Position numbers and translations under genes: made by a program. This document shows, piece after piece, positions 18,049-24,736 of a DNA stretch of 64,000 nucleotides. The notes under the pieces were generated by a model. That model did no database searches and had not been told where the DNA came from. It saw only the letters and a list, made by a program, of their open reading frames with translations. The stretch comes from Escherichia phage vB_EcoM_PTE-Eco09. Position 1 is the first letter of the stretch. Each line of letters starts with the position of its first letter. Location: the sequence record PQ306574.1; one strand, written 5' to 3'.

Positions 18049-19848
18049 TCACCCAAGATCAATACGGCTACCATCAATTTTAACTGTACCAGATGCAATA
18101 TCTTTAACGCTTGCACCACAATTACGGGACCAGTCACCATTAACCTGATCTGATTTAGTGCCATTGACTGTCATATTAAAATTACCCTCAACGGTTAAAT
18201 CATAGTTACCTTTAATTGTTTCGGTAGTGTTACCATCGATCATTAATTCAGCATTACCCTTGACGTTAGCCGTCAAATTAGCGTCAAGCTGTGCGATAAC
18301 ATCACCAACAACATGCATGTTAGCAGCACCTTCAACGGTCTGATTAACATTGCCACGAATAAATTCAGTGACGTTACCATCAACGGTTTGCATCACATTA
18401 CCCATATAATAAACTTGCGCGTCACCTTCAACAACAACTTGCAAATTACCCTTGACGTTTACTTTCCGGCCTTGTTTAACGATCAGATAATCATCACCTT
18501 CAATCTTTTCTACCCTCGTTCCGTCCGGTCTGGTTTCTTCAAATGTACCAGAAGGATGTTTACGATGATATCGCTCATGAGAAGGAGTATCATCAATCTC
18601 GATAATATGACCGCTCTCTGACTCGTACACATGGTTATATGGATACCTTGCAGAATACGAACTCTTAGGCTCTTTAAACATGATTCGTGTGTCTTGTGGG
18701 GTAAACGGTGCTTCTGGGTCTTCTTCTGCTCTCTGCGTCTTATAGGCAGCAATACGGGCATTTCTCAAACGTGCTCGCGGATCATCCGAAATTGATTCCT
18801 CTTTCTTTGGAGCAATTACGCCATATGATTCTAAGTTACCAGTTAAAATAATTTTAGAAACACGGCTGGAGCGTCCTGGAGTTTGGTTAGCCCATACCGA
18901 TTGACGTAATCCATCATAGGCTTGTTTCCATTCTTCCGCTAACATCGCAGCAAGACTATTCTTAAATTTACCCAATCCTCCAACACCCATTTGAAACGCC
19001 ATATTTTCTAATGCCATACGACGTGAGGCATTACATTTATTATAGACAGGTGCAATTCGTGGATGTTTGCGCATATCACGACGAGTCTTTTCTATATCGT
19101 CGGCAAATACTTTACTAACTTCTTCGGCGGTAAGTCTTCCGTTTGTAACTTCACGCCCTACCAGCTTAGAAAGTTCATTATTGATAATACCAAGATCACT
19201 GGTTTTCTTATAAATGATCAAATGCCCGATGCCTATTGTCGGATATCCTTCTGAATCAAGATACCATTTCTCGCGATATCCCTCATCGCCCCGCAGCATT
19301 TTTTCTATTGTAAAATCAGGATTATCATCAACCGGAATTTGGTCTAATGGCTCGTCGTCTGGATTTACTGCAACTCCAGTGTTTTCATCTCTAATATAGA
19401 CACTATCAGGTTTTGTTGTTTGTCCGGTTTCTGGGTTAATACCGCCACGAGCAAGAATATTAACATCATTACCAATATAACGAGGATATGCACCAGAAGG
19501 GTCACAAAAACCCTCTGTAGTGAGTGGTTTCTCTGTATATTGTCCGGCAATAGTACCCAGAATAACGCAGTTTAAATAACGTTCATCTAAAGCCAAACCA
19601 AATACCATTGAACCTTCAACAATACCAGTAGGGCTTTGACCTATACCGGAGATCGCCGCGCTTGTAATATCTTGTACTGGCGTAATCCATAATAGATCTT
19701 CGGTTGGAAGACCTTGAATGTCACCGTGTGCGGATAGCGAGGGATGTATACCATGAATCCTAACCTGAACACGCCCCAGCATTAATGGGTCTTCCCTGTT
19801 TTCTACAATTCCGGTAAACCATTTAACGGAGTTATTAAACATTAGCAT
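18049..19848 (-). CDS. 5: Baseplate central spike with lysozyme domain (T4 gp5-like)
   Basis: 599 aa; central lysozyme-like segment (DSEGYPTIGIGHLI) and C-terminal beta-helix repeats (VxGN..). Confidence 0.9.
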   Translation of the reverse strand: MLMFNNSVKWFTGIVENREDPLMLGRVQVRIHGIHPSLSAHGDIQGLPTEDLLWITPVQDITSAAISGIGQSPTGIVEGSMVFGLALDERYLNCVILGTIAGQYTEKPLTTEGFCDPSGAYPRYIGNDVNILARGGINPETGQTTKPDSVYIRDENTGVAVNPDDEPLDQIPVDDNPDFTIEKMLRGDEGYREKWYLDSEGYPTIGIGHLIIYKKTSDLGIINNELSKLVGREVTNGRLTAEEVSKVFADDIEKTRRDMRKHPRIAPVYNKCNASRRMALENMAFQMGVGGLGKFKNSLAAMLAEEWKQAYDGLRQSVWANQTPGRSSRVSKIILTGNLESYGVIAPKKEESISDDPRARLRNARIAAYKTQRAEEDPEAPFTPQDTRIMFKEPKSSYSARYPYNHVYESESGHIIEIDDTPSHERYHRKHPSGTFEETRPDGTRVEKIEGDDYLIVKQGRKVNVKGNLQVVVEGDAQVYYMGNVMQTVDGNVTEFIRGNVNQTVEGAANMHVVGDVIAQLDANLTANVKGNAELMIDGNTTETIKGNYDLTVEGNFNMTVNGTKSDQVNGDWSRNCGASVKDIASGTVKIDGSRIDLG

Positions 19849-19859
19849 AATTAATCACC

Positions 19860-20414
19860 TTACACATCAGCCTTTTCCATTTCTCGAATGAATGCGTTAA
19901 TAAATTGTTTAATTTGTGTAGGATCTATGATCTTGATCTTGCGTCGTTCCTCATTACGGAGGATCGCATCTTCCAGTGTGTCTACTGCCGATAGTGCACC
20001 TTGAAACTGCAAATGACGATGATGAATATCCCCTTTATCATACCAATTGCTTGATCCTTTCGGATATTCGGTAAGATTCCAATACTTGTTTCCGTCAATA
20101 TCAACGTGGTATAATACTTGATTTCCTCCTACATTTGCATATCGCTGTTCGGCTGATTCATATGCTGTCTCTTGATCGGTGATCCAGTCATGGAATGGAT
20201 CGTATACGTCATTAATCATCAGCAAGATCCAGTAAAGTTGTTGGTTTCCGTATACTTCATATGCAACTTGTTCCGGTCGTGGACTACCTTGAATGTAATA
20301 TGTTTGTATGTTATAATCAGAAATTATTGCGTTGAAATATGCGCGGTAATTGCGCACAATGTCAGTAATCATCTTGCCGTTGTATTCAATGGCAGGGAAG
20401 AAAGAAAAGAGCAT
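19860..20414 (-). CDS. 53: Baseplate wedge protein (T4 gp53-like)
   Basis: 184 aa; YYIQGSPRPE..NQQLYWILLMINDVYDP resembles T4 gp53 YYIKGSPRPE..NPQLYWVLLMCNDNYDP. Confidence 0.85.
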   Translation of the reverse strand: MLFSFFPAIEYNGKMITDIVRNYRAYFNAIISDYNIQTYYIQGSPRPEQVAYEVYGNQQLYWILLMINDVYDPFHDWITDQETAYESAEQRYANVGGNQVLYHVDIDGNKYWNLTEYPKGSSNWYDKGDIHHRHLQFQGALSAVDTLEDAILRNEERRKIKIIDPTQIKQFINAFIREMEKADV

Positions 20415-20446
20415 TTTAGCACCCTCAATTGATAAATAGTATTATG

Positions 20447-20454
20447 TATTTATA
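20447..20454 (-). promoter_or_regulatory. T4-type late promoter motif TATAAATA upstream of gp53
   Basis: Plus strand TATTTATA about 33 nt upstream of the gp53 ATG, inside the inverted repeat GCACCCT..AGGGTGC (20419-20465). Confidence 0.55.
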
Positions 20455-20469
20455 ATAAAGGGTGCTAAA

Positions 20470-21165
20470 ATGGACTATCAAAAACAATATGAACGATTAA
20501 TTGAACGCGCAAAGCATAGAACGCTTGAAGGATATAAAGAAAAACATCATATTATTCCTCGTTGTATGGGAGGCGATGATAGTCCAGAAAATATAGTTGA
20601 GTTAACGGGGTCTGAACATTTTGTTGCTCATCAACTTTTAGCAAAAATGCATCCAACACATCACGGAATTGTACATGCGGCGAAAATATTGATGGGGTCT
20701 ACCAACTATAACAATAAACAATTTGAGTGGGTAAGAAAACTTGCGGTTGAGACTTCAAGAAAATTTCATACAGGAAGAAAAAGATCCGAAGAGACTAGAC
20801 GCAGAATATCAGAAGCAACTAAAGGAAAGAGAAAAGGAATTAAATTATCTGAGGAACATCGACAGAAATTATCTGCTTCATTAAAAGGTAGAGTGTTTAC
20901 AGAAGAACATAAAAGAAATATTGCGTCAAGAGAAATTACACAAGAATGGAGAGACAACATCTCTAAAGCGGGTAAGGGTAGAAAGTTGTCACAAGAAAAC
21001 GTAGAGAAATGGAAACGTATTCATAACACGCCAGAAATGAAACAAAAATATAGTGAATTGTCAAAGTCTCGTCCGTATTTCACCTGTCCTCATTGTGGAA
21101 AAACAGCCAATCAGGGAAATTATGTTAGATGGCATGGTGACAACTGCAAGAAGAAGGTGGTATAA
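20470..21165 (+). CDS. HNH homing endonuclease with NUMOD3-like repeats
   Basis: HHIIPRCMGG..N..EL..EH HNH motif, then repeated basic S/T-E-E-x-R-x-K motifs (GRKRSEETRRRISEATKG, KLSEEHRQKLSASLKG); inserted upstream of gp4. Confidence 0.8.
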   Translation: MDYQKQYERLIERAKHRTLEGYKEKHHIIPRCMGGDDSPENIVELTGSEHFVAHQLLAKMHPTHHGIVHAAKILMGSTNYNNKQFEWVRKLAVETSRKFHTGRKRSEETRRRISEATKGKRKGIKLSEEHRQKLSASLKGRVFTEEHKRNIASREITQEWRDNISKAGKGRKLSQENVEKWKRIHNTPEMKQKYSELSKSRPYFTCPHCGKTANQGNYVRWHGDNCKKKVV

Positions 21166-21638
21166 TGGGTAATTGCAACACATATAGGGGTAAATATAGA
21201 CCTGAAAACCCGGAGAAGTATAAAGGCGACCTGAAAAAAATCGTCTACAGGTCAAGTTGGGAATTACATATAATGAAATTTTTAGACCGCAATCCTAGAG
21301 TTGCAAAATGGGGATCTGAGACCGTAGTAATTCCTTATGAGTCATCAACAGACGGAAAAAGACACAGATACTTTATGGATTTTTACGTTAAGTTTGATGA
21401 TGGCAAGGAGCATTTATGGGAAGTTAAACCAGCTAAAGAGACAAGGCCACCGGAAAAGCCAAAAAGAATGACCGCAAAGACAAAGCAACGATATATGCAT
21501 GAAGTGTGGACGTACACAAAAAATACTGAAAAATGGTTAGCTGCCGTGAAATTATGCCAAAAGCATAACATGGAGTTTAAGATCATCACCGAACATGCAT
21601 TAAAGAAAGTGTTTGGCTTTAAAGGGCTTAACAAATAG
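21165..21638 (+). CDS. 4: Head completion protein (gp4-like), PD-(D/E)xK-like motif
   Basis: 157 aa (T4 gp4 about 150 aa); D..E.K motif (MDFYVKF..EHLWEVKP); position before gp2. Confidence 0.55.
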   Translation: MGNCNTYRGKYRPENPEKYKGDLKKIVYRSSWELHIMKFLDRNPRVAKWGSETVVIPYESSTDGKRHRYFMDFYVKFDDGKEHLWEVKPAKETRPPEKPKRMTAKTKQRYMHEVWTYTKNTEKWLAAVKLCQKHNMEFKIITEHALKKVFGFKGLNK

Positions 21639-21649
21639 AGGATAATATT

Positions 21650-22471
21650 ATGAGCGTATTTGAAATAATCACAGAAGACGAAAAGCCGTCTCCCCAAAAA
21701 CGAAAGTCTAAACAGTGGGTCGAATTGGGTGTAGAATTTGCGAAAGCAAAAGCCAAAGGAATGACAGCTAAAGCATTTGCAGATTCTAAGGGAATAGCCT
21801 ATGCGACTTTCACTAAAAGTATGTCTCGTTATGCAAGCGAAATTAAAACAGCAATAGAAGTTGAAAAACTAAAAGGGAAAGGCGCAAAGGGTCTCAATAA
21901 GCAGCAACGCGCAATGATGATGATTAATGATTTTCGTGCGTCTATGCGTGCTGTATCAAAGAGTCGTCCTAAAGAAAAATCACAGGAGTGGTTTATGAAG
22001 ACCATCAAGGATGGTGTAAAAGGTCATCAGGTAGTAAAACCACAAGTGGGACGGATCTATACTTATGCGTATAACCCAAAATATCGGGATTCTTTGCCAT
22101 TCTTTGACCGATACCCCTTGATTATCTGTCTAGGATTTGGTACATCTAAAGCGGGAAACGAGATTATGCTAGGTTTGAACTTGCACTATGCGCCACCTAA
22201 AGCTCGCCAGCAGTTCTTAGAAGCGTTGTTGCGACAATACGCGAGTACACCTACTCTTAGTAATAAAACTCGTTTAAAAATTAAATGGAGTGATGTTAAA
22301 GGTATGAGAGGCGCAGACCACATGATCAAAGCATATTTGCCTGGACACATCCAAACAAAACTGATTGAGATCGCACCAAAAGATTGGAGCACGGTTGTGT
22401 ATCTTCCGACCTACCAGTTTATGAGCAAAGACAAGAAATATGATGCTCGTAAGGTGTGGAAATTGTTTTAA
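21650..22471 (+). CDS. 2: DNA end protector protein (gp2-like)
   Basis: 273 aa (T4 gp2 274 aa); basic N-terminal region; called on size and synteny only. Confidence 0.5.
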   Translation: MSVFEIITEDEKPSPQKRKSKQWVELGVEFAKAKAKGMTAKAFADSKGIAYATFTKSMSRYASEIKTAIEVEKLKGKGAKGLNKQQRAMMMINDFRASMRAVSKSRPKEKSQEWFMKTIKDGVKGHQVVKPQVGRIYTYAYNPKYRDSLPFFDRYPLIICLGFGTSKAGNEIMLGLNLHYAPPKARQQFLEALLRQYASTPTLSNKTRLKIKWSDVKGMRGADHMIKAYLPGHIQTKLIEIAPKDWSTVVYLPTYQFMSKDKKYDARKVWKLF

Positions 22472-22527: not shown

Positions 22528-23670
22528 ATGACTAAAGAAAGAAAACCTAATTCAGTTCCTAGACCGTTCGGTGTATATCTAGAGAAGGTAAAAGAACATA
22601 TCCCATGTGGTTATGAATGGTATGGTCTAGTCGGAGAATACACCAACGCAAAGGATACTAGATTTAAGTTAAAATGTGATAAAGGACATACGTCAACTAT
22701 ATTTAGTTTAGATACTCTTAGACTGGGTGTAAAATGTCATGAATGCACTGGTCGCTTACGCTGGACCAAAGAAAGAATAGATGATGCATTAAAGACAATA
22801 TGCGGAAAATACACATTGATCGATATTCCTAAAGGATATACAGGTCAAATGACAGAATTACTAATGCATTGTCCTGATTGCAACAAAAACTTTACTAAGA
22901 AATTTATATATCTTTATCAAGGTCATGGTTGTCTCTGCGTTAAGGGTAAACGCTGGAATAGCGAAGAGTTGCTAACAGAGATGAGGAATAACCAAAAAGA
23001 CCACGAAGTCATTGGCTATGTGTCTGATTATAAAGATTTTTATGAAAGAAATATCTTAGTTAAATGCCCTAATGGACATGAATATACTGCATCCGGTCAC
23101 TCGTTTTTAGTTAATGGATCTAGATGTAAACTATGTTCAGGTAAAAACAAGAAGTCAACTGAGCAAGTAGTAAAGGAAATAACAGATAAGGCGATTGATA
23201 AAGGTGATACATTTGTTGATTTTGTTGGCGGTGAGTATAGAGGAATGCTAAAAACAAAATTGGTAATGCGTTGTAGTAGCGGACATGAATTTACGCCAAA
23301 CTTAGGAGACTACGTATCAAAAAATAGCGGTTGCCCTATGTGTAGCAATCATGGATTTAAGAGGAATAAACCTGCATACATTTATGTACAAACTTTATAC
23401 AAAGAAGATGTTGCGGTTGCTATAAAATTTGGTATAACCAACAACAGATTAATAAAAAGAATACAAAACCAATCTTCAAAATCTATATTTCGTCATGAGT
23501 TGACATTTTATAAAAAATACGATAACGGTGATGATGCTCTTTCTATGGAATGTGCAATAAAGAAAAAGTATAAAGGTTTCTATGTTAGTAAAGAAGATAT
23601 GCCCGATGGATATACAGAAACGCTATCCATATCAGAGCTACAAAACGTCATTGATATGATCAATAGTTAA
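22528..23670 (+). CDS. Zinc-ribbon repeat protein with C-terminal GIY-YIG-like (T5orf172-type) domain
   Basis: Four CxxGHE[FY]..G..CxxC repeats; C-terminal KPAYIYVQ..IKFGIT..R..E resembles a GIY-YIG/T5orf172 fold; splits the gp2-gp3 pair. Confidence 0.5.
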   Translation: MTKERKPNSVPRPFGVYLEKVKEHIPCGYEWYGLVGEYTNAKDTRFKLKCDKGHTSTIFSLDTLRLGVKCHECTGRLRWTKERIDDALKTICGKYTLIDIPKGYTGQMTELLMHCPDCNKNFTKKFIYLYQGHGCLCVKGKRWNSEELLTEMRNNQKDHEVIGYVSDYKDFYERNILVKCPNGHEYTASGHSFLVNGSRCKLCSGKNKKSTEQVVKEITDKAIDKGDTFVDFVGGEYRGMLKTKLVMRCSSGHEFTPNLGDYVSKNSGCPMCSNHGFKRNKPAYIYVQTLYKEDVAVAIKFGITNNRLIKRIQNQSSKSIFRHELTFYKKYDNGDDALSMECAIKKKYKGFYVSKEDMPDGYTETLSISELQNVIDMINS

Positions 23671-23674
23671 GATT

Positions 23675-23700
23675 AAGCCCGTCAATGACGGGCTTTTTTT
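23675..23700 (+). terminator. Rho-independent terminator
   Basis: AAGCCCGTCAATGACGGGCTT hairpin followed by TTTTTTT. Confidence 0.6.
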
Positions 23701-23701
23701 A

Positions 23702-23956
23702 TTATAGATCGATAGCATGAGCATAACCATGTAAGAAGTCTTTTAATTCTTCCTTATTGGTAACACGCTGTAAAATCTCTAATGCCTTGTCGCGATCACG
23801 TAATGCACCTGAAAGGGATTTTATTTGATCATCCCTTTCTGCAATCTGCTTAAGCAGATCTGTATTGCATTTAGACAAATAGAGAACTTCACCCCGCAAT
23901 GTTGCTAATTCGTTATCCAGACGATCATAGAGTTTTAACAAAATGTCTTCTGTCAT
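23702..23956 (-). CDS. Hypothetical coiled-coil protein, antisense to the surrounding plus-strand genes
   Basis: 84-aa ORF, ATG with GAGGA RBS; heptad-like Leu pattern; lone minus-strand gene in a plus block. Confidence 0.35.
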   Translation of the reverse strand: MTEDILLKLYDRLDNELATLRGEVLYLSKCNTDLLKQIAERDDQIKSLSGALRDRDKALEILQRVTNKEELKDFLHGYAHAIDL

Positions 23957-24145
23957 AAGAAGTCCTCGTATAGTACCCGTTTTATTTATTACTGTATAAA
24001 AATATAGTTATTGGTTAAAACATAACCAAAACGAAGAAAGATCTTTAGAATAATAAAAATTTGTTTCGGTTAAAAAGTAGTCAGTGCCTACGGCACGTCG
24101 CAAAGCGACAATTGTTAATAAATATTTTCATTTGAGGAATCAGTA

Positions 24146-24736
24146 ATGTCTAATCTCTTTAACTATGCTAACCCTAGCAACTGGCAGATTGCCATTCCAG
24201 ATGGTCAACTAACAAAAGGCTTTACTTTAAACTGTCAAGGTGTTACACTTCCGGCTATAACCATTCCACCGACTAAGCAAGTTGCTGGTCAATATGGTTT
24301 GGCGGTCGCTGATTATCCGTCTAGTCATGTGGAGTTTGACCCGTTGGTAGTCCGGTTTATCGTTGATGAGCATTTGGAAAGCTATCTAAACCTTTACACA
24401 TGGATGCTTTCTATAGTAGACTACAATAACGGTAACTCCACAGCGTGGAAGGATTCAATGCCGGAAGCCGTTCAAGTTCACATGATGGACAACGAACGAC
24501 GTAACATTGTGTGCACTTTTAACTTTTATGGTTGTTGGTGTTCACAATTGGGGGAACTTGAGTTAACATACACCGATGATATGCATGAATCTCTGGTGTG
24601 TACTGCAATTCTTCCCTTTAAAACAATGAGCATTGAACGTGATGGTCAACTGATCGTTCCTCGCCCAGCAATTCAGGCGGCGGATCGTCAGAGGGTGGAA
24701 GGTATTAAAGCTATGCACCCTGCTTTTAGAAAGTAA
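24146..24736 (+). CDS. 3: Tail completion / sheath stabilizer (gp3-like)
   Basis: 196 aa; GAGGA RBS; position between gp2 and gp1 as in the T4 order 4-2-3-1. Confidence 0.5.
   Translation: MSNLFNYANPSNWQIAIPDGQLTKGFTLNCQGVTLPAITIPPTKQVAGQYGLAVADYPSSHVEFDPLVVRFIVDEHLESYLNLYTWMLSIVDYNNGNSTAWKDSMPEAVQVHMMDNERRNIVCTFNFYGCWCSQLGELELTYTDDMHESLVCTAILPFKTMSIERDGQLIVPRPAIQAADRQRVEGIKAMHPAFRK

Follow-up and report, generated by a model that had tools for sequence, protein, structure and literature searches.

The 55-bp divergent junction between gene 53 and an HNH endonuclease gene in Escherichia phage vB_EcoM_PTE-Eco09 (sequence record PQ306574.1) is, judging from its sequence, the native and strongly conserved 53/4 divergent late control module of T4-type phages, and the endonuclease gene appears to have entered it as a cassette that lives on the signals of gene 4. 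We consider this explanation, taken as a whole, to be likely. The cassette, consisting of the endonuclease ORF and about 150 bp of diverged sequence at the 5' end of gene 4, is inserted directly after gene 4's ATGG. Because it stands at that point, the endonuclease would be transcribed from the late promoter of gene 4 and translated from gene 4's Shine-Dalgarno (SD) site and ATG, and genes 4 and 2 would now lie downstream of it in the same message. The window analyzed here, a stretch of 64,000 nucleotides, comes from a Krischvirus (an RB49/JSE-like coliphage); coordinates refer to the window, and the features discussed are collected in Table 1.

Table 1. Features at and around the junction of gene 53 and the HNH gene
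Feature	Position	Strand	Basis or remark
gp5	18049-19848	-	
Gene 53 (baseplate wedge subunit)	19860-20414	-	184-aa ORF; Pfam Phage_gp53, E = 2e-58; gp53 annotation in relatives
Left arm of inverted repeat, CATTTTAGCACCCT	20412-20425	.	gp53 start codon, spacer and complement of the gp53 SD; extends to 20430 at 89%
gp53 Shine-Dalgarno site, GAGGGTG	20420-20426	-	5 nt before the ATG; read from sequence
Sigma70-like site, TTGATA (20429-34), 16 nt, TATAAT (20451-56)	20429-20456	+	Start would be ~20463-64, inside the SD
Late-type (gp55) box GATAAATA, G at -13, native to gene 4	20431-20438	+	Predicted start ~20444
Consensus late promoter TATAAATA, for genes 53-5 and genes downstream	20447-20454	-	Predicted start ~20441
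Right arm of inverted repeat, AGGGTGCTAAAATG	20459-20472	.	SD AGGGTG (20459-64), spacer, ATG (20470-72)
Putative free-standing HNH/NUMOD3/CCHC-finger homing endonuclease gene	20470-21165	+	231-aa ORF, 696 bp
New gene 4 Shine-Dalgarno site, AAGGTGG	21154-21160	+	Inside the 3' end of the HNH gene
Gene 4 (head completion/head closure)	21165-21638	+	Pfam TnsA-like N-terminal domain, 4e-21; gp4 in relatives
Diverged gene 4 5' tract, moving with the endonuclease	21165-21315	+	Presumed immune or co-converted target region
Gene 2	21650-22471	+	

The anatomy of the junction can be read directly from the letters. ORF coordinates place the start of gp53 at 20414 on the minus strand and that of the HNH ORF at 20470 on the plus strand, which confirms the 55-bp divergent gap (20415-20469) described in an earlier, sequence-only reading of this DNA. 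The same reading had assigned gp53 a late promoter, TATAAATA, on the minus strand at 20454->20447, and the assignment stands: T4, Pm5461, Klebsiella phage Mineola, and VR25 have theirs likewise placed, and Nolan et al. 2006 predicted a late promoter of RB49, Pl:64518, at the position of this box (PMC1524935, supplementary file). Absent from that reading was a second box, GATAAATA on the plus strand, which now precedes the HNH gene, gene 4, and gene 2. The minus-strand box matches the TATAAATA consensus at eight of eight positions and the plus-strand box at seven of eight, its sole deviation falling at -13, the most tolerant position in T4 late promoters (PMC2988020; PMC1524935).

The two boxes are crossed; that is, each lies nearer to the start of the other gene than to its own. 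They stand 8 bp apart, with 32 nt between the minus-strand box and the ATG of gp53 and 31 nt between the plus-strand box and the ATG of gene 4 or, here, of the HNH gene. Each is then followed by a 26-27-nt leader ending in an identical SD-spacer-ATG block (AGGGTGCTAAAATG). Both boxes therefore show, in their sequence, the match expected of a late promoter together with a short distance to a gene in the right orientation and conservation in relatives. We infer that both fire; by the T4 rule, which puts the box at -13 to -6, their transcripts would start at ~20444 (+) and ~20441 (-). The gene 4-side box is not among the 17 late promoters that Nolan et al. predicted in RB49 (PMC1524935); in position it is the homologue of the boxes that precede gene 4 in T4, Pm5461, Mineola, VR25, and TG1. 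Crossed, overlapping promoters would imply that the junction can accommodate polymerase in just one of the two orientations at any moment, and such occupancy could determine how many head-completion transcripts are made relative to baseplate transcripts. Our literature searches returned nothing usable on a divergent 4/53 late-promoter pair or on a T4 transcription-start map.

Across both strands of the window we found 13 NATAAATA motifs, compared with about 25 expected from first-order composition, and 8 of the 13 lie 20-52 nt before ORF starts. This scarcity is consistent with avoidance of stray late promoters. A second copy of GATAAATA, at 1373->1366, precedes the tail-sheath-stabiliser gene and overlaps the stop codon of the gene upstream; it is not in the set predicted for RB49 and lends weak support to the use of boxes with G at -13. 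The window also holds a second divergent late junction, at 23956-24146, where AATAAATA boxes stand on both strands, about 125 bp apart and not crossed. The one at 23990->23983 precedes an 84-aa ORF, and the one at 24117-24124 precedes a gene that matches the PHROG tail-tube family, at the position of RB49 gene 3.

Conservation of the junction was observed at two levels. Within Krischvirus, a 94-nt segment spanning it is at least 97.9% identical in 58 of 58 matching records, 33 of them without any difference, and most of the 58 carry no HNH gene. The closest relatives of the window, G37-3 (99.4%) and JSE (99%), match it on both sides of the 696-bp ORF, which they lack. In such HNH-less phages the same 55-bp gap separates gene 53 from gene 4, and the ATG aligned with 20470 is the one that opens gene 4. 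When we aligned 12 Krischvirus junctions, the only variants within the 55 bp were a G/T difference at 20419 and one extra A, which sits in the A-run before the ATG of some relatives; both late boxes were unchanged in all 12.

Beyond the genus, the same layout is found in T4, Pm5461, Mineola, VR25, TG1, and two IMG/VR contigs, with a gap of 46-55 bp, mirrored SDs, and crossed NATAAATA boxes 7-10 bp apart. The record of Proteus phage Pm5461 annotates both promoters. The design of crossed boxes and mirrored SDs is common to T4, Bragavirus, Jiaodavirus, Gaprivervirus, and Tegunavirus. It is because this design recurs among T4-like phages, and because the gp53 promoter of RB49 is predicted at the same place, that we assign the 55-bp segment to genes 53 and 4 as their native module.

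The product of the 231-aa ORF matches PHROG 655, 'homing endonuclease', at 3e-64, and a NUMOD3 match of 29.6 bits exceeds the cut-off. The Pfam models HNH, HNH_4, and HNH_5 match residues 21-43, all below the cut-off (18.2 bits versus 21.4). Across 39 homologues, residues H26, H27, N41, H50, and H54 are invariant, as is a C-terminal CCHC finger (C206/C209/H222/C226). Membership of the HNH class is thus proposed from a sub-threshold Pfam match together with conserved H-N-H columns. The protein family has more than 1,600 members, some of which are named free-standing HNH homing endonucleases, and some homologues carry PF01844. An AlphaFold model of the protein is confident (pLDDT 89.6). The best Foldseek matches to it in the PDB were HNH domains, although these were weak and local, with E above 0.1, a result probably owed to the extended chain of small modules that the model presents. 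A PDB sequence search with the endonuclease gave no meaningful relative, and an NCBIfam search gave nothing relevant.

The boundaries of the insertion and its polymorphism are evident from the comparison of genomes. Foreign DNA begins at 20474, immediately after the ATGG held in common with gene 4. Five Krischvirus records in the phage collection (MIZ2, MIZ3, MIZ6, Brandy, and ELT4) have the gene, and the other records matching the region lack it. On the far side, the first 150 nt of gene 4 differ from G37-3, JSE, and RB49 by 44 mismatches, amounting to about 12 amino-acid changes, with near identity beyond; against MIZ6, which has the HNH gene, the same tract shows 3 mismatches. A search of the phage collection for the source of the diverged tract found nothing closer than native Krischvirus gene 4 (~75%). 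Divergence of this kind beside the insertion is expected where the target flank of a homing endonuclease is immune or has been co-converted (PMC2988022), and here it accompanies presence or absence at a single site among near-identical genomes. The HNH gene appears to be a polymorphic, free-standing homing endonuclease gene that was inserted together with ~150 bp of diverged gene 4 5' sequence. Its product would presumably cleave the gene 4 alleles of phages without it.

Homologues of the endonuclease with 52-60% identity adjoin gene 4 on its upstream side in UPEC07, TG1, Aeromonas phage 25, and KpV477, so that the lineage spans five genera (Krischvirus, Gaprivervirus, Tegunavirus, Tulanevirus, and Jiaodavirus). 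Their stop codons overlap or abut the start of gene 4. UPEC07, TG1, and KpV477, the three with an intergenic gap, have a NATAAATA box 18-27 nt ahead of the ATG. Aeromonas phage 25 has gene 5.1, on the same strand, as the upstream neighbour in place of gene 53, which ties the lineage to gene 4 rather than to the palindrome described below. In KpV477 (L024:1496-1600) and TG1 (L022:1496-1600), gene 4 is annotated ~85 nt short; its conserved MAYSGKF start overlaps the 3' end of the HNH gene. The gene 4 frame of KpV477 appears to shift after ~20 codons, and a frameshift or a sequencing error is possible.

How the endonuclease gene is expressed follows, in our reading, from where it stands. The gene does lack signals of its own, and the cassette brings no promoter. 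The sequence-only reading had supposed that its expression may hinge on the structure of the inverted repeat or on read-through from the antisense direction, and a weak sigma70-like site does lie antisense within gp53. That supposition now has very little probability: the native late-type box, SD, and ATG of gene 4 stand directly before the HNH ORF, and the folding of a read-through RNA would hide the ribosome site and so hinder expression. The box GATAAATA, the SD, and the ATG are identical in HNH-less phages, where gene 4 uses them. We found no further NATAAATA box on the plus strand between 20439 and 24116, so no other late promoter is available to the HNH gene and genes 4 and 2, and the three most likely share that of the junction. 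Reliance on upstream phage promoters would be nothing unusual, since promoter-less free-standing endonuclease cassettes that use them are the norm in T4, with seven cases described by Edgell et al. (PMC2988022).

Insertion has also changed the start of gene 4. The TAA stop of the HNH gene overlaps the gene 4 ATG as TAATG (21163-21167), and gene 4 would be translated through this stop/start overlap from the new SD within the HNH 3' end. At the same 3' end there is a GTGACA-18-TATAAT sequence (21137-21166, +) that scores 11/12 and has a TG. Its -10 hexamer (21161-21166) ends one base into the ATG at 21165-21167; for that reason it cannot serve translation of gp4, and it is probably fortuitous.

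The sequence-only reading also stated that the HNH gene has no recognisable sigma70 promoter. A sigma70-like site is in fact recognisable: on the plus strand of the junction, TTGATA-16-TATAAT scores 11/12, a match whose chance is 0.004 in shuffles of the 55 bp. It would permit early transcription of the HNH gene, and of gene 4 with it, through host sigma70, and the plus strand accounts for 22 of the 24 strong sigma70-like sites of the window (11/12 or better; about 2.5 expected in total). In T4, genes 4 and 2 are late genes. The hexamers are largely by-products of the late boxes, with TT+GATA coming from GATAAATA and TATA+AT from the complement of TATAAATA, and their spacing is fixed by the 8-bp distance between those boxes. 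A start inside the SD would leave a 6-7-nt leader without an SD. Moreover, in the likely early promoters of the window TTGACA is nearly always perfect and the spacer is mostly 17 nt long, and the site is not among the 51 early promoters that Nolan et al. predicted in RB49, where the sequence is the same. Because its hexamers derive mostly from the late boxes, its start would fall inside the SD, and it is absent from the RB49 early set, it is unlikely to be a productive promoter, and we regard early transcription of the HNH gene from it as improbable.

The other strong sigma70-like sites nearly all lie beyond 26 kb (26000-58000, +), have a perfect TTGACA, and presumably mark the early-gene region. 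Elsewhere, a 12/12 site, TTGACA-18-TATAAT (1919-1948, +), runs antisense within a late-gene ORF (1372-2112, -). A 10/12 site, TTGAAT-17-TGtTATAAT (20289-20317, +), runs antisense within gp53, and RNA from there would cross the palindrome. Both are possible sources of anti-late RNA.

We turn to the inverted repeat that brackets the junction. The sequence-only reading gave it as GCACCCT (20419-20425) and AGGGTGC (20459-20465). Those letters are where it placed them, but 7 bp is too short: the perfect match is 14 bp, CATTTTAGCACCCT and AGGGTGCTAAAATG, and the arms reach 19 nt at 89% match (20412-20430 and 20454-20472). The 14-bp arms contain both start codons, both spacers (5-6 nt), and both SD sites. 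Inside the loop is an inner repeat, ATAAATA (20432-38) and TATTTAT (20447-53), formed by the two late-promoter boxes on opposite strands. This is the sole perfect inverted repeat of at least 12 bp with a loop of at most 60 in the 64-kb window; in first-order Markov simulations, chance gives a mean of 0.2 such 12-mers and 0 such 14-mers.

The 61-bp quasi-palindrome is, then, the DNA across both back-to-back sets of signals, and it is a quasi-palindrome because two like sets stand back to back. It had been presented as a repeat in which the gp53 promoter is nested; for the most part, however, it is no device around that promoter but arises because one signal set mirrors the other. The 14-bp arms are not wholly explained in this way, because the match of the spacers exceeds functional need. 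Specifically, the 6-nt SD-to-ATG spacers TTTAGC and GCTAAA match perfectly, although function does not demand such a match, and we estimate the probability of its arising by chance at roughly 1e-3 given local composition.

As a candidate intrinsic terminator the repeat was rejected. A terminator scan made no call, and the structure lacks the G+C-rich stem, short loop, and U run of such elements: the stem is A/U-rich at its base, its loop measures 33 nt (8 nt should the inner repeat pair as well), and no U run comes after it on the plus strand. An Rfam scan of 20200-20700, with E up to 1, returned generic hairpin noise only (miRNA and CRISPR-repeat models far below threshold), and a tRNA scan of the junction region found none.

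The excess of pairing leads to the question of whether the repeat also acts in RNA. RNA that reads through the junction is predicted to fold at -27.9 kcal/mol (+) and -28.4 kcal/mol (-), with z = -7.7 and -7.3, in a strong hairpin that covers the SD and AUG on either strand. The late transcripts would start inside the 'loop', at the two positions given above. Since they start there, each late RNA would carry one arm only and an open ribosome site; the leaders of these RNAs, folded alone, come out as unstructured (-3.0 and -7.1 kcal/mol, z about 0). The repeat could be a selected two-way translational gate, in which any RNA crossing the junction folds at about -28 kcal/mol and buries the downstream SD and AUG, and loop-started late transcripts escape. 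It would act like the hairpins of T4 e, soc, I-TevI, and segB and of Aeh1 mobE, and the endonuclease would inherit the gate ready-made. Such a gate is compatible with our preferred explanation as an added layer.

Several observations speak for a gate. Both late boxes lie in the loop, and the arms are longer than the signals alone need. TG1 has, independently, a strong repeat in the corresponding place. Control by such hairpins is well established in other T4 late genes and in homing endonucleases (PMC2988022), and the sigma70-like site at 20289-20317 (+) could supply the read-through RNA. In TG1 the 53/HNH junction (L022:752-803) has a perfect 16-bp repeat, GCCTCCTTAATAAATA and TATTTATTAAGGAGGC, that fuses SD and late box, and its read-through RNA folds at -26 kcal/mol (z = -7.6).

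On the other hand, both natural variants in the arms, the G/T difference at 20419 and the additional A ahead of the ATG, make pairing weaker, and neither has a compensating change. Covariation in support of the hairpin could not be found within Krischvirus, where there is too little variation, and the changes that exist are not matched on the opposite arm. Across genera the z of the hairpin ranges from -0.25 to -7.6, and in T4 and Pm5461 the hairpin is weak (z between -0.25 and -1.9), so hairpin strength has not been conserved among these junctions. The pairing of SD with anti-SD and of box with anti-box is automatic whenever like signals stand back to back. The supply of RNA is a further difficulty. 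From the RB49 predicted promoter set, no upstream early unit is predicted to read through: the nearest predicted early promoter in the direction of gene 4 is ~34 kb upstream (Pe:98401), and none is near the junction. Only the 10/12 sigma70-like site at 20289 lies close by, and the genes on either side are divergent late genes. Known RBS-sequestering hairpins with an internal late promoter are those of T4 e, soc, and I-TevI and of Aeh1 mobE (PMC2988022). The junction shares with them a stable hairpin over SD and AUG with late starts, here predicted ones, inside it; compensatory changes in pairing and an upstream early or middle unit were not found. On balance we think a selected gate unlikely.

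The variant at 20419 deserves mention in its own right. It is G in the window, G37-3, and MIZ6 and T in RB49, JSE, and ELT4, with no compensating change, and it decides among near-identical genomes whether the 14-bp repeat is perfect. Even two deposits of RB49 differ there: NC_005066 has T, and the junction of OZ035808 is 100% identical to that of the window. Recurrent quasi-palindrome template-switch mutation, recombination, and sequencing error are all possible causes. A more elaborate form of the gate would link these facts: the 61-bp quasi-palindrome would be a selected symmetric gate, the HNH lineage would insert at ATG+1 for the sake of late-only control, and the arms would be kept by template-switch correction, which would explain the G/T state of 20419. 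We judge this form quite unlikely.

Finally, the palindrome might act at the level of DNA, either as an operator for a dimeric protein (for example, through autorepression by the endonuclease, like that of I-TevI) or as a cruciform. Ahead of the HNH ORF, the presumed homing site still has its left half, as far as ATGG; I-TevI is known to repress itself at its own late promoter (PMC2988022); and the single-stranded DNA would fold at -17 kcal/mol (z = -5.8). The palindrome, however, is older than the endonuclease and unchanged in phages that lack the HNH gene. We know of no protein that binds it, and we hold a DNA-level role to be very improbable.

A second polymorphic insertion is found just downstream of gene 2. 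This 380-aa ORF (22528-23670, +) combines a CapR-homology domain with a treble-clef zinc finger. The window shares it with G37-3 and JSE (annotated 'endonuclease'); RB49 and MIZ6 lack it. Between this ORF and a convergent one (23702-23956, -) lies a perfect 10-bp inverted repeat with a 1-nt gap (23675-23695), which is probably a two-way terminator. The terminator annotation of G37-3 falls between gene 2 and the 380-aa ORF and not at this repeat.

The results do not overturn current understanding; they describe ordinary biology of known kinds, and their value is mainly for annotation. The ATG at 20470 and the signals upstream of it are historically those of gene 4. The HNH gene and genes 4 and 2 are probably united in a single late operon that relies on a variant late box, and an endonuclease tied in this way to two essential genes would be favoured for retention. 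Across genera, a single HNH lineage is specialised for the 5' end of gene 4, and it offers a natural and convenient system for the study of signal capture by free-standing endonucleases.

The nearest known counterpart of the junction itself is the 4/53 region of T4, together with those of Bragavirus, Jiaodavirus, Gaprivervirus, and Tegunavirus. The same genes stand head to head at 46-55 bp, the boxes are 7-10 bp apart with each ~26-32 nt before its own ATG, and RNA reading through would pair box with anti-box and SD with anti-SD. The Krischvirus junction differs in the G at -13 on the gene 4 side and in its outer arms, which are 14 bp, perfect, and inclusive of the start codons, compared with box-centred repeats of 7-10 bp in T4, Pm5461, and Mineola. 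The window differs further in having an endonuclease gene in gene 4's place.

With T4 e, soc, I-TevI, I-TevII, I-TevIII, and segB and with Aeh1 mobE, the junction shares a hairpin over SD and AUG, a late box within it, and a late RNA without the 5' arm. Unlike that class, it is symmetrical and concerns both strands, no upstream early or middle unit is evident, its arm variants are uncompensated, and its pairing follows mostly automatically from the mirrored signals. The cassette resembles the free-standing endonucleases of T4, which are likewise HNH-type genes between conserved genes, expressed from an existing phage promoter in a polycistronic message, present or absent among close relatives, and accompanied by diverged sequence beside the insertion (PMC2988022). 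It differs from them in taking over an SD and start codon exactly and giving the displaced gene a replacement SD, and in having no embedded promoter for the essential genes downstream; its activity and target are putative. Further parallels are the homologues in Yersinia phage TG1/phiR1-RT, Escherichia phage UPEC07, Aeromonas phage 25, and Klebsiella phage KpV477, which share its position upstream of gene 4, although in UPEC07 and KpV477, unlike in the window, part of the intergenic region has come with the cassette or been rearranged by it.
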